Assembly: GCA_041659325.1 (NCBI GenBank)
Contig: JBAZYN010000001.1
Span: 197,428-236,818, forward strand
Direction: 5' to 3'
Length of the DNA stretch: 39,391 nt
Origin: Candidatus Shapirobacteria bacterium
GTDB lineage: Bacteria > Patescibacteriota > Microgenomatia > UBA12405
Position 1 is the stretch's first letter. Every line of letters starts with the position of its first letter. A program made the translations under genes and the position numbers. This document shows positions 9,378 through 31,091 of this stretch, in pieces. The notes beneath the pieces were generated by a model, which searched no databases, was not told the DNA's origin, and saw only the letters and a list, made by a program, of their open reading frames with translations.

Positions 9378-9752
9378 GTTACCCCACATGGTGTCCTCCA
9401 CCTTCGGTTACGGAACACCTAAGATTCTGTCTTGCTTTCACATCTTTCTTTAAAGCTTCAGATATCAACCTTTTATAAGCGAATGCTTTTCCAGAACCGC
9501 TTTTCAAATAAAGTTCAAAATCTTTAGCCTCTTGCTCACTTTCAAAAGATCCATACCAAACTAATTTCCATGGAATATGCGGTTTTGTTGAAAATACATT
9601 TCCTCTGTTGTGTAATTCAAATCTGTTCCTCAGGTCTGAGGTGTATCCATAGTAGAAAATATGTGATTTTGAACTTAACAATATGTAGGAATAAAACATT
9701 CCTCAGTATAACCATTCTGAAGCTTTAGCGAAAGATGGGTTACCCCACATGG
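9378..9752 (-). mobile_element. Putative tRNA-Gln-associated GIY-YIG mini-element
   Basis: 14-nt direct repeat GTTACCCCACATGG at 9378-9391 and 9739-9752 (tRNA 3' end); 22-nt inverted repeats at 9441-9462 and 9716-9737 (20/22 identical). Confidence 0.6.
9379..9699 (-). CDS. GIY-YIG nuclease family protein
   Basis: YSYIL...YYGYT..L..R...HN, PWKLV and E..LKSG motifs; C-terminal tail is read through repeat DNA. Confidence 0.9.
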   Translation of the reverse strand: MFYSYILLSSKSHIFYYGYTSDLRNRFELHNRGNVFSTKPHIPWKLVWYGSFESEQEAKDFELYLKSGSGKAFAYKRLISEALKKDVKARQNLRCSVTEGGGHHVG

Positions 9753-9810
9753 ATTCGAACCACAATTACTACGTTCAGAGCGTAGTGTCCTACCATTAGA
9801 CGATGGGGTA
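9740..9810 (-). tRNA. tRNA-Gln(CTG)
   Basis: Acceptor TACCCCA/TGGGGTA, anticodon arm CTACG-CTCTGAA-CGTAG, T-loop GGTTCGAATCC; TGaTAGAAT promoter 15 nt upstream. Confidence 0.97.
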
Positions 9811-19388: not shown

Positions 19389-19531
19389 TCATTGCGCCTG
19401 CCCGCCTCTGGCGGGAGGAGCTTTTCAAGCGACGAAGCAATCATTACAGGATTTGACTATACAAATCTCTCCACTCCGAATTATTGCTTTTGTTAAAGAT
19501 TGCCACAGTCAATCCTTCCTTCGCAATGACG
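19389..19531. repeat. REP-like CGTC-tagged palindromic element with nested 19-nt insert
   Basis: TCATTGCG 19389-19396 pairs with CGCAATGA 19522-19529; GCAATC 19437-19442 pairs with GATTGC 19498-19503; insert CCTGCCCGCCTCTGGCGGG at 19397-19415. Confidence 0.7.
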
Positions 19532-28404: not shown

Positions 28405-29511
28405 ATGGAACATAGAGTATCAAGAAGAGATCTTCTAAGATCGGGAGCTGCTGCGCTAGCTGGTCTAGCTGCAAAAGGTTGTATGCCAGAATCTGCCCCT
28501 TCGCAAACAGCACAACCTCCTGCCAATAGCAATGAGGCTCCTCAACCATACGTTGAACAGCCCGCTCAACAACCTACAGTTGCAGTGGTTGAAGAAAGAC
28601 CATCTACAGACAAATCTCTGAATGAACTTTATGATATATATCAAAACGGTGACTTGAGTAAAATTGCTCCGGAGCGTAATTTGGATGAATTAGATCCACG
28701 TATTCAAATGATCAGGCAGTATGCAAACAATATTCAAAATGGAAATGCAAAACAGATAGTATTATCCGATCTTGATAGGTTTACAGAACTTACTTCTAAC
28801 AACCCTGAAACAATAAAATTGTACTATGCTGAAGATGGCCGAGAATACTTGAGAGTTGCTTTAGTTCAGGCACATATCGATGATTCCAAACAGACTGTTC
28901 GTTTCGAATTTTTATTAGCTCCAGATCGTAAATCTCTAACCGCCAGTAACCTAGGTGATTTTGTTCATGAACTTCACCACACGATCGCTCAATACGATTA
29001 TTATGCGCAACACCATACGCTTCAAAGAGACTCACAAATTGAAGAAGCAGAAGAAGTAACTTGTTCTCACCTTGGTAATTTAATACAAGGTCTAGCACTA
29101 AAAGATTATCCTACCACAGAGGATTCATCAGAGCTTTTAAAATCTGATATCGGAATTGACGCACCACAGGCAGCTGCACTTTTGGATAATTCTTATAGTT
29201 CAGAGCCTGGCAATCCAACCTGGAAGGTTATACAAGACCTTTCGTTGAGATTCGTCTTAAACAGGGGGATCGATAAGTTTAAAAATAAATATGGTGACAA
29301 AAAAACAATTTTTAGAATATTGCAAATTATAAAGAACGGAAAAATTAAGGAGGCTCTTATGAGTAAACAATTTGAAGCAGGGAGAGATAAAATTGACACC
29401 TATTATAGCCAAAATCCAATTAGTGAAGATATCCAACAACAAATTGAAACTCTACGCCAAGGGGGATATTTACACAACGACTTCATACCACAATCCTATT
29501 TATCACACTAA
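28405..29511 (+). CDS. Putative lipoprotein with twin-arginine-like signal and HEXXH motif
   Basis: SRRDLLRSGAAALAGLAAKG-C, P/Q-rich linker, then FVHELHH followed by EEAEE. Confidence 0.65.
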   Translation: MEHRVSRRDLLRSGAAALAGLAAKGCMPESAPSQTAQPPANSNEAPQPYVEQPAQQPTVAVVEERPSTDKSLNELYDIYQNGDLSKIAPERNLDELDPRIQMIRQYANNIQNGNAKQIVLSDLDRFTELTSNNPETIKLYYAEDGREYLRVALVQAHIDDSKQTVRFEFLLAPDRKSLTASNLGDFVHELHHTIAQYDYYAQHHTLQRDSQIEEAEEVTCSHLGNLIQGLALKDYPTTEDSSELLKSDIGIDAPQAAALLDNSYSSEPGNPTWKVIQDLSLRFVLNRGIDKFKNKYGDKKTIFRILQIIKNGKIKEALMSKQFEAGRDKIDTYYSQNPISEDIQQQIETLRQGGYLHNDFIPQSYLSH

Positions 29512-29532
29512 AAATCTAATATCTTCATCGAT

Positions 29533-29607
29533 TGGTGACCCTACGGGGAATCGAACCCCGGTTATTTGGATGAGAACCAAATGTCCTAACCGCTAGACGA
29601 TAGGGCC
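29533..29607 (-). tRNA. tRNA-Glu(CTC)
   Basis: Acceptor GGCCCTA/TAGGGTC, anticodon arm TTTGG-TTCTCAT-CCAAA, T-loop GGTTCGATTCC, encoded CCA. Confidence 0.97.
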
Positions 29608-29849
29608 TTACTATGTATTAAATTTTCAATAGCCTTTCTGCTTTTCCACGACTTAATTATTTTTTCTCTCTTTCGAGCCAAAGAAAGGCTTGAAAACTTC
29701 TCAAAGTATATCAAATTCCAAGGCAATTTTAACTTCGTATATCTGGATCTTCCGGCATTATGATAATTTAGTCTTTGATATATCTCAGACGTTGACCCCA
29801 CATAATAAGAATTATCCCTCAATGAAGCTAGAATATAAGTGTAATACAT
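29586..29849 (-). CDS. GIY-YIG nuclease family protein overlapping the tRNA-Glu 5' end
   Basis: YTYIL...YYVGST....RL..HN, PW.LIY and RE..IKS motifs; the last 22 nt of the ORF are tRNA sequence. Confidence 0.9.
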   Translation of the reverse strand: MYYTYILASLRDNSYYVGSTSEIYQRLNYHNAGRSRYTKLKLPWNLIYFEKFSSLSLARKREKIIKSWKSRKAIENLIHSKALSSSG

Positions 29850-29857
29850 AACTTACT

Positions 29858-29929
29858 CTAACCGCTAGTCCCGATCCTTCGGATCGAGGATGCTCGGTCC
29901 CTTATATTCAGACCGGCAACGATAGGGCC
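29858..29929 (-). repeat. Interrupted duplicate of the tRNA-Glu 5' 22 nt
   Basis: GGCCCTATCGT (29929-29919), a 50-nt insert of two hairpins (29918-29869), then CTAGCGGTTAG (29868-29858). Confidence 0.8.
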
Positions 29930-29951
29930 GCGTGTTGTACAATTAAAACAG

Positions 29952-31091
29952 ATGAATTCTATCAAATTTCGTCATCAAATTCTTTTAATTCTCATCACCG
30001 CTCTTTCATCAACAATTTTCTGGTTGATATTTTATCTCAATATACCCTCCCTGATTGGTTTTCCCGCCACCACCCTTGAGACGATCTTCTCAAACTACGA
30101 CGGCCCAAATTATATGATTATCAGTAAATGCGGCTACAATCGTGACTGTATCGCTTCAAATTTTTCCCTTCCCTCTGCTCTCGAATATTACCCCGCTCAT
30201 TTTCCGGCTTATCCGCTCATAATTCGCTTCTTTGACAATTTCTTATCCGGCCCCAAATCAATGCTTCTGGCCACTCTTTTTGGATCAATTTTCCTTAGTC
30301 TTATTTTATATAACTTTTTTAACCAGTTTATAAATTCCAAAAAATCACTCTGGCTATCAATTATCATGATATTTTTCCCCGGAAGATTGTTTATATTGCG
30401 TCAAATCGGCGCTCCGGAAACCTGGTTTGTGGCCTTTATTCTTCTTTCTATACTTCTCTTTCGCCAAAAAAAATATCTCTATTCTGCCTTATCCGCGGGT
30501 TTTTCCTTATCTTTTAAAAGCCCCGGTGTGCTATTGGGTGTGTCATATCTTGCTCTGGCTATATATGAACTTCTTTTCCAAGATTTAAAGCTTAAGGAAA
30601 TCTTTCGAAAGTACATTTATTTTCTTTTTATTCCTCTGATCCTGCTTGCAATATTCTTTTTATATCATTTTCAAACGGGAGACTTTTTGGCTTATTTTCA
30701 TAGCGGTGACAATTTTCACCTTAGCCTTTTCCCATATACTGTCTTTATAAGCAATCGATCCTGGATCAACACCATCTGGCTTGAGGACGTTATTTATATA
30801 TATTTTATTTCTTTATACGGCATTTACCGTTTGAATAAAAAGTATCATCGTGATCTGGTTTCAATATTTCCATCTATATTCCTCCTTGCTACCCTTTTTG
30901 TCGCCCACAGGGATATCAGCCGATACATTACCCCTATCTATCCATTTCTCATGCTTTCTTTTCATAAAACTCTTACTCAAAAATCCTTCAAGCTTATCTT
31001 TGTCATCCTTCTGCCGGCAATTATCTTATATGCGATCAATTTCGCTATCGGTAATACCGCTCCCATTGCCAACTGGAAACCATATCTATAA
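29952..31091 (+). CDS. Polytopic membrane glycosyltransferase (GT-C, PIG-V/PMT-like)
   Basis: DGPNY..I...GY, AHFPAYP and PETWF motifs; many TM segments. Confidence 0.7.
   Translation: MNSIKFRHQILLILITALSSTIFWLIFYLNIPSLIGFPATTLETIFSNYDGPNYMIISKCGYNRDCIASNFSLPSALEYYPAHFPAYPLIIRFFDNFLSGPKSMLLATLFGSIFLSLILYNFFNQFINSKKSLWLSIIMIFFPGRLFILRQIGAPETWFVAFILLSILLFRQKKYLYSALSAGFSLSFKSPGVLLGVSYLALAIYELLFQDLKLKEIFRKYIYFLFIPLILLAIFFLYHFQTGDFLAYFHSGDNFHLSLFPYTVFISNRSWINTIWLEDVIYIYFISLYGIYRLNKKYHRDLVSIFPSIFLLATLFVAHRDISRYITPIYPFLMLSFHKTLTQKSFKLIFVILLPAIILYAINFAIGNTAPIANWKPYL

Follow-up and report, generated by a model that had tools for sequence, protein, structure and literature searches.

SsnA of Neisseria is a single-domain GIY-YIG nuclease of 94 residues, in which Y6, Y17 and E64 are catalytic (PMC11893778). 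It binds an oriented hairpin repeat, the NTS (CGTC, a palindrome and CYRG), solely as single-stranded DNA, does not bind RNA, and cuts a few nucleotides (nt) upstream of the hairpin; Ssn can also cleave with a hairpin that two oligonucleotides form together (PMC11893778). A host-level role of SsnA and the NTS in transformation has been demonstrated, most ssn genes are flanked by NTS or SRM repeats, and the authors liken the NTS-ssnA-NTS arrangement to an insertion sequence; transfer RNA (tRNA) genes, target duplications and filled or empty sites go unmentioned in their paper (Chenal et al. 2025; PMC11893778). T4 SegB is a free-standing GIY-YIG homing endonuclease encoded in a phage tRNA gene cluster; its site includes a conserved tRNA motif (the T-psi-C stem-loop), and its gene is preferentially co-inherited with neighbouring tRNA sequence (PMC2330249). 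The mORFs of fungal mitochondria (Allomyces atp6; Glomus atp6, atp9, cox2 and nad3) are endonuclease open reading frames (ORFs) inserted in an essential gene, which supply a replacement copy of the gene end they displace and leave the native end beyond the ORF (PMC3630166). Here we describe a locus in a Candidatus Shapirobacteria genome, in which a gene for an 87-residue GIY-YIG nuclease and a double hairpin lie within a tRNA-Glu(CTC) gene. It was found in a stretch of 39,391 nt, referred to below as the window (assembly GCA_041659325.1, contig JBAZYN010000001.1, positions 197,428 to 236,818). The locus is kin to the homing-type GIY-YIG elements and to the Ssn-type nuclease-hairpin pairs; the literature searched contained no earlier account of bacterial tRNA genes that harbour GIY-YIG cassettes.

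In our opinion, the locus is quite probably a member of a family of minute selfish cassettes that reside within tRNA genes. The best reading of its parts, by analogy with Ssn pairs, is that of a minimal UPF0213/Slx1-type nuclease together with its cognate double hairpin. The order of elements is promoter flank, tRNA nt 1-11, hairpins, tRNA nt 12-22, nuclease ORF and full tRNA. An earlier note, made from the window sequence alone, had stated that the first 22 nt of the tRNA-Glu are repeated upstream of the nuclease, split at CGT|C by a 50-nt insert of two hairpins, and the sequence agrees. The 22-nt overlap of the ORF and the mature tRNA that it described is real as well, and is kept in all six intact copies at Glu sites. 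The last seven codons of the ORF and its stop codon coincide with tRNA nt 1-22, the stop TAG being nt 20-22, and all six of these ORFs end in ...A(L/P)SSxG* at the same TAG.

The first line of evidence for insertion is the comparison of filled and empty sites. In 21 relatives, the tRNA-Glu(CTC) gene lies divergent to a gene for a 379-residue membrane protein. About 12 of them have an empty site, where only 20-26 nt, reading CTGTTTTAATTGTAC(A/T)ACA..., separate the start of the membrane-protein gene from tRNA nt 1. In the window, this flank is joined to the split copy instead of the intact tRNA. Because the flank meets tRNA nt 1 in the empty sites, nt 1-11 of the split copy represent the original tRNA 5' end. 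The best pair of filled and empty sites, metagenome contig L078 and genome G099, respectively, has an identical flank of 29 nt. The comparison shows that 322 base pairs (bp) have been inserted between T11 and C12 of tRNA-Glu, in the D-stem, at the motif TCGT|CTA, with insert boundaries that are ambiguous by up to 22 nt owing to the direct repeat. Under the 11|12 reading, nt 12-75 of the tRNA-Glu would be resident and nt 1-11 would have been brought by the insert, which then contains the hairpins, the copy of nt 12-22, the spacer, the ORF and nt 1-11. The host retains a working tRNA because nt 1-11 are doubled and nt 12-22 are also repeated. The same split is found at the orthologous tRNA-Glu of other genomes and metagenome contigs. 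Chimeric acceptor stems were sought as a footprint of donor-derived nt 1-11, but the variant T6.G67 occurs at empty sites too and is uninformative.

The second line of evidence is the distribution of the cassette lineage. A search for hairpin 2, allowing up to three mismatches, in 132 genomes of the order recovered it from six: this genome, one genome from genus g41 and four of the roughly 45 from genus g8. A scan of metagenomes added five further contigs. Genus g8 is divided: at the Glu site, G007 and G098 carry the cassette, whereas G099 and G102 do not. G102 has a cassette of this lineage in tRNA-Gln(CTG), where the split is once more between T11 and C12 (TGCTTCGTCGT, hairpins, CTAATGGTAGGACA). 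At that Gln site, G099 has an ORF-less derivative that includes a second hairpin module, G098 has a small remnant, and G007 is empty. The Gln copy of G102 is nested in the Glu clade of the nuclease tree, beside G007, in a tree whose clades otherwise track tRNA species, side of the tRNA and hairpin type. In this genome, the 7-mer TCGTCTA is found at the D-arm of only four tRNAs, all of them Glu or Gln. Comparison of these loci shows presence/absence polymorphism and the occupation of a second tRNA species at the same motif.

The repeats themselves are informative. In the seven copies with an intact ORF, 163 of 163 repeat nucleotides are identical to the resident tRNA, and the repeats follow the substitutions of that tRNA (nt 4 and nt 15-16 at Glu sites; the Gln sequence in G102), in copies whose ORFs differ by 20-36% at the amino acid level. 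The length of the nt 12-22 copy varies from 7 to 15 nt across orthologous cassettes. The sole ORF-bearing copy with an imperfect repeat, L079 (activated-sludge contig UOWO01001075), has a stop at codon 5 of the ORF and one substitution in its copy of nt 12-24 (GGTCAGGA vs GGTTAGGA). These observations suggest either that the insertions are young or that the repeats are constantly renewed while the nuclease works. At locus L055 (G002:C56), upstream of tRNA-Glu(CTC), two tandem ORF-less units, each made of nt 1-11, a 28-nt hairpin module, nt 12-34 and 33 nt, are identical save for the 5' end of the outer unit, and their repeats are decayed; this arrangement fits repeated insertion into a regenerated 11|12 site. 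Pseudo-copies with extra hairpin modules at other fixed positions, in G099 and at tRNA-Leu(GAG) of this genome, suggest that hairpin modules may be able to insert alone.

The third line of evidence is the conservation of the double hairpin. Folded as DNA, the 50-nt insert has a free energy of -12.6 kcal/mol (z -3.5), and none of 200 shuffles is as stable. Each hairpin carries one bulged base, and both bulges are retained in nine distinct copies. Over both hairpins, 99% of the cells in these nine copies are paired, with four pairs altered on both sides. Hairpin 2 is 100% paired, with compensatory change at two pairs; hairpin 1 has a conserved base and an inner stem swapped with compensation (CCGGTC/GACCG vs CCGATTCG/CGAATCG). 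This covariation shows that hairpin structure is under selection. The double hairpin stands 19 nt upstream of the ATG in seven of seven intact orthologous copies and on one side only. Hairpin type tracks the nuclease clade. The stem variants of hairpin 1 are independent of host genera: G099 (genus g8) has the variant of this genome (genus g1), and differs from G007 and G102, both of g8.

The nuclease scores 64.3 bits against PF01541, compared with a gathering cut-off of 22.6, and consists of this single domain. Residues Y5, Y16, G18, R26, H30, E62 and K66 are invariant among 30 homologs. The AlphaFold model (predicted local distance difference test score 93.7) is a bare GIY-YIG domain, with a three-stranded sheet and flanking helices but without a DNA-binding domain. 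Its nearest structures are the UPF0213 proteins BH0048 and EF2693, the nuclease domain of Slx1 (30-34% identity and root-mean-square deviation 2.1-3.4 A over 64-71 aligned columns) and the catalytic domain of I-TevI. Relative to the G007 ortholog (78% amino acid identity), nonsynonymous divergence (dN) is 0.13 and synonymous divergence (dS) about 1.1; judging from this dN/dS of about 0.12, the ORF is under purifying selection. In the same comparison, the synonymous sites of the adjacent host gene are saturated, with a proportion of differing sites of 0.82 vs 0.58 for the nuclease, which hints that the common ancestor of the cassettes is more recent than that of their hosts. NCBIfam, PHROGs and PADLOC gave zero matches for the nuclease, which is therefore not a recognised defence component.

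The tRNA-Glu locus is not the sole occupied one. This genome (1.12 Mb in four contigs, 46 tRNAs, assembly 98% complete) contains six small GIY-YIG ORFs, five of which lie within 200 nt of a tRNA, vs 2% of the genome (P ~2e-8). Four cassettes combine an ORF with a tRNA duplicate and at least six scars lack an ORF; about 10 of the 46 tRNA loci are marked by the family. The cassette at tRNA-Asn has the layout of that at tRNA-Glu: nt 1-11, a 39-nt hairpin module, nt 12-21, a GIY-YIG ORF and the tRNA. At tRNA-Pro(GGG) and tRNA-Gln(CTG), the ORF is 3' of the tRNA and is followed by a copy of the tRNA 3' end that a hairpin splits. The tRNA-Gln(CTG) cassette is also in the window; its ORF (9379-9699) runs through its own hairpin (9390-9419), the stop codon TAA lies in the 14-nt copy of the tRNA 3' end (9378-9391), and TATACT stands 5 nt before the ATG. 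Partial duplicates that are split by palindromic modules and lack an ORF are located at C1:430648 (Leu-GAG), C1:442671 (Lys-CTT), C1:447614 (Val-GAC), C1:512547 (Leu-CAA), C2:75751 (Ser-GGA) and C2:266148 (Pro-CGG); the Leu(GAG) pseudo-copy has two different modules, and two tandem units are present at Pro(CGG).

Such ORFs are carried by 30 of 41 relatives, with 0 to 9 per genome among close relatives. A tRNA lies within 200 nt of the ORF in 28 of the 35 best homologous loci, on the same strand in 27, and a split partial duplicate is usually found beyond the ORF. In one nuclease clade, associated with Ala, Lys, Ile, Thr and Gly tRNAs (L011, L012, L013, L014, L019, L022 and L023), the far copy is a nearly complete pseudo-tRNA, in which a short hairpin replaces the anticodon arm (about nt 27-43). 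A further type of repeat, the NTS-like CGTCATTGCG...GCAATC, is present in 31 copies in this genome with exchangeable inner hairpins, one of them at 19492-19531 (minus strand) of the window; four in tandem adjoin the sixth GIY-YIG gene (C1:568649-568800). The inner modules TCCGCC..GGCGGA, TCCCGA..TCGGGA and CCTGCCTGCCGGCAGGCA are common to these repeats and to the tRNA cassettes and scars.

Table 1. Coordinates of the tRNA-Glu(CTC) locus and of the second cassette in the window
Feature	Position	Strand	Basis or remark
tRNA-Glu(CTC), intact	29533-29607	-	ARAGORN; Rfam RF00005, 63 bits
GIY-YIG ORF, 87 residues	29586-29849	-	Pfam PF01541, E 1.3e-17
322-bp insert, if the insertion point is tRNA 11|12	29597-29918	-	Filled/empty comparison
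Spacer AGTAAGTT, 8 nt, between tRNA fragment and ATG	29850-29857	-	No Shine-Dalgarno sequence
TAGAGT, -10-like hexamer, candidate leaderless promoter	29855-29860	-	Sequence; followed by AAGTT, then ATG
Copy of tRNA nt 12-22, CTAGCGGTTAG	29858-29868	-	Sequence comparison
50-nt insert, two adjacent hairpins	29869-29918	-	Fold
Hairpin 2, TCCTCGATCC-GAA-GGATCGGGA, bulged T	29869-29890	-	Fold
Hairpin 1, TGCCGGTC...GACCG-A-GCA, bulged A	29891-29918	-	Fold
Copy of tRNA nt 1-11, GGCCCTATCGT, orphaned original tRNA 5' end	29919-29929	-	Flank comparison with empty sites
Intergenic flank of 22 nt, original; minus strand reads CTGTTTTAATTGTACAACACGC	29930-29951	.	Kept beside tRNA-Glu in about 12 empty-site relatives
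Second cassette, 3' side of tRNA-Gln(CTG) (tRNA 9738-9810)	9378-9810	-	

The intergenic flank of Table 1 separates the tRNA side from the divergent membrane-protein gene. In the latter, TACAAT precedes the ATG by 8 nt and a Shine-Dalgarno sequence is lacking (29938-29954, plus strand), so that this gene may also be leaderless; this hexamer accounts for the conserved TTGTA motif of the tRNA-Glu flank.

The mechanism that we favor for the selfish cassettes can be outlined as follows. The hairpin module would be the cognate recognition site of the nuclease, by analogy with Ssn. Breaks made by the nuclease, followed by recombinational repair, would copy the cassette into unoccupied tRNA genes; this is the most economical model, and is that of homing endonucleases. 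The ORF would be expressed either as part of a tRNA transcript, of which it would form the leader, or from TAGAGT acting as a weak -10 element of a leaderless mRNA, and RNase P cleavage at tRNA nt 1 would strip the ORF of its stop codon and so limit expression. The jump to tRNA-Gln may have occurred by microhomology-mediated template switching, for which the near-identical Glu and Gln D-arms in g8 and a TAA in common at the ORF/tRNA junction would leave room.

Several points weigh against a mobile cassette of this kind. Movement of the cassette is a comparative inference throughout. A hydrolytic GIY-YIG enzyme cannot join DNA, and host repair must therefore be invoked. Both tRNA pieces of the Gln copy are Gln-type, where simple homing predicts donor-derived pieces; therefore, template switching, later gene conversion or a target-duplicating mechanism is required. 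The regenerated tRNA retains an intact TCGT|CTA, which would leave it exposed to repeated cutting. The patchy distribution could stem in part from frequent loss via direct-repeat recombination and not from frequent gain. The likeness to Ssn also has its limits. The SRM pattern HGTCWYN(0-2)YYVSBRHN(0-5)WNVSBRGN(0-2)RNCYNB has no match in 29841-29940 on either strand, and its five matches genome-wide compare with 4.0 in shuffles. Moreover, the 87-residue protein is nearer to UPF0213/Slx1 than is the more Ssn-like paralog of the same genome: it matches UPF0213 structures at E 7e-7, and the sixth paralog, located among the CGTCATTGCG repeats, at only E 0.17. This suggests that the 87-residue protein belongs to a sister subfamily to Ssn.

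The earlier note had proposed that the split duplicate forms the promoter of the nuclease, with TAGAGT at the junction, and that RNase P, acting on the tRNA overlap, couples or limits expression. That the duplicate exists for this purpose is, in our view, unlikely. The split copy is an insertion scar and not a built promoter, because its 5' half is the original tRNA 5' end beside the original flank. Comparison with relatives, moreover, finds the split duplicate without the GIY-YIG gene, as two tandem ORF-less units at tRNA-Glu in G002 and as ORF-less copies at tRNA-Gln in G099 and G098, an outcome that the note itself had named as grounds for refutation. Where a cassette stands 3' of its tRNA, the split copy follows the ORF. 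The hexamer itself fares better. TAGAGT does stand 5 nt before the ATG, as had been noted, and nine of 31 cassettes have TANNNT ending 5-8 nt before the start, without a Shine-Dalgarno sequence, vs about one per other 5-nt bin. TAGGAT occupies that place in L080, L078 and G007; the hexamer is absent in G098, G089 and G102, i.e., in three of the seven Glu/Gln-site copies. A sigma-70 scan left TAGAGT uncalled, there being no -35 element; it likewise left the tRNA promoter uncalled, so that the silence of the scan is weak evidence. It is thus plausible that a weak leaderless promoter lies where the copy meets the 8-nt spacer before the ATG.

The promoter proposal also has to contend with the 11 of 31 cassettes in which the start codon comes 0-3 nt after the tRNA 3' end. 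Starts of this kind, for example ...GGTCCACCA|ATG, are seen in L003, L010, L014, L017, L019, L022, L023, L028 and L030. Processing of the tRNA 3' end would release these 3'-side ORFs as leaderless mRNAs starting at AUG, and leaderless expression tied to a tRNA looks like a trait of the family. The RNase P component of the proposal draws on the position of the stop codon inside the tRNA in six of six intact Glu-site copies and on a candidate RNase P RNA at C1:167085-167368, which scores 90 bits vs a gathering score of 100 bits and makes the presence of the gene probable; removal of the ORF stop codon by RNase P cleavage is a plausible and fair inference. Neither ARAGORN nor Rfam RF00023 found a transfer-messenger RNA in the whole 98%-complete assembly.

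Slightly less probable again is that the locus is a domesticated, non-mobile device that serves the host in the manner of Neisseria SsnA/NTS, by trimming single-stranded DNA as it enters or by modulating recombination at tRNA loci; the duplicates would then be old by-products that gene conversion has kept alike. Strong purifying selection on the ORF, perfectly maintained repeats and the dispersal of hairpin repeats with related modules in the genome are consistent with such a device, as is the host role of SsnA/NTS in transformation (PMC11893778). This account sits poorly with a distribution that is patchy within a genus and includes clean empty sites, with the occupation of two different tRNA species by the same lineage, with tandem ORF-less units and decayed copies, and with the range of 0 to 9 copies per genome among close relatives. 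We consider it improbable that the orphan tRNA pieces that flank the hairpins, as RNA or single-stranded DNA, pair with the complementary strand of the tRNA gene and so place the nuclease exactly at 11|12. Such guiding would explain why both pieces are kept despite compaction, match perfectly in seven of seven intact copies, decay when the ORF is dead and are Gln-type after the switch to tRNA-Gln, and Ssn can cleave with a hairpin built from two oligonucleotides (PMC11893778). Against such guiding, both pieces are very short, at 11 nt and 7-15 nt, SsnA is without RNA binding (PMC11893778), and covariation cannot inform here, since the pieces have the sequence of the tRNA through descent. That the similarity arose by chance or is an assembly artefact is hardly worth entertaining: the same architecture recurs in independent assemblies and metagenomes, the adjacency to tRNAs has P ~2e-8, and in this genome the split into nt 1-11, hairpins and nt 12-21 is met again ahead of another GIY-YIG ORF, that at tRNA-Asn.

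Other known kinds of tRNA-associated DNA were considered and rejected. A group I or archaeal-type tRNA intron does not agree with the intact tRNA downstream, and Rfam shows no ribozyme in 28500-31000. An integrase-type island with an att site in the tRNA would require a recombinase, of which there is none, and the insert is merely 322 bp. The hallmarks of insertion sequences are likewise absent: the sole ORF encodes a hydrolytic nuclease, and the ends of the insert have no inverted repeats.

Few stretches of cellular DNA are as conserved, or as heavily transcribed, as tRNA genes. An element of about 320 bp inside such a gene, in a host that stays alive, would show how small an autonomous selfish element can be. 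The selfish-cassette reading joins homing-type GIY-YIG nucleases with the recently described Ssn nucleases and their hairpin repeats, and bears on the role of Ssn outside Neisseria and on the spread of its repeats. The cassette family shapes tRNA loci, transcripts and annotation in bacteria of the candidate phyla radiation, and a nuclease that comes with its hairpin and a defined target might be developed into a tool that cuts single-stranded DNA.

Among described systems, two kinds of small mobile or repair-related nuclease share some features with the cassette. The small HUH transposases of IS200/IS605 and REP/RAYT systems cut and rejoin DNA via a covalent intermediate. As in the cassette, a small nuclease is tied to hairpin repeats, which are there read as single-stranded DNA, and insertion takes place beside a short specific motif; unlike the cassette, they involve no duplicated segment of a host gene, and the GIY-YIG hydrolase of the cassette cannot rejoin DNA. 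Slx1 is a eukaryotic repair enzyme with a RING domain, which needs Slx4 and cuts branched and hairpin DNA. It has the nearest solved fold with a known function, but is not part of a mobile element.

Homing elements and mORFs resemble the cassette in their relation to the host gene. Like a SegB-type homing endonuclease gene, the cassette shows presence/absence polymorphism at one homologous site. SegB is a multi-domain phage protein encoded between tRNA genes, whereas the cassette nuclease is a catalytic domain only and is encoded inside a tRNA gene; SegB also lacks the hairpin module and the duplicated tRNA fragment, both of which are present here. Like the mORFs, the cassette couples an ORF to a second copy of the host-gene end that it displaces (nt 1-22 here; 3' ends at tRNA-Pro and tRNA-Gln). 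The mORFs differ in having protein-coding hosts and mostly LAGLIDADG ORFs, and the copy that they insert is foreign (64-81% identical), whereas that of the cassette is identical to the resident sequence; a hairpin splits the leftover fragment here, and none does so there.

The cassette probably works like Ssn, the hairpin being the recognition site of the nuclease by analogy, and this comparison does not claim membership of the Ssn family. As in Ssn, the protein is a single-domain GIY-YIG nuclease of about 90 residues without a DNA-binding domain, and its Y5, Y16 and E62 correspond to Y6, Y17 and E64 of SsnA. The gene stands beside a conserved, oriented hairpin, to which the bulges give direction here, and which covaries with the nuclease lineage; the cassette differs in having two adjacent hairpins, compared with one in Ssn repeats. 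The CGTC...CYRG flanks of the NTS have their parallel in the D-arm CGT|CTAG that brackets the hairpins, and, again as in Ssn, the host genome holds NTS-like repeats, the 31 copies of CGTCATTGCG...GCAATC, that share inner modules with the tRNA cassettes. More tentatively, and with the odds rather against it, the tRNA cassettes may represent the partnership of nuclease and hairpin of the Ssn type in a "wild", still-mobile state; the 87-residue nuclease would read the double hairpin on single-stranded DNA, and the pair would invade CGT|C(T/Y)RG in Glu and Gln D-arms. If true, the CGTC...CYRG flanks of dispersed NTS- and REP-like repeats would be fossils of tRNA-derived target sites. The puzzling spread of hairpin repeats associated with Ssn would thereby gain both an origin and a mechanism, and a class of mobile DNA that moves without a transposase or recombinase would be defined.

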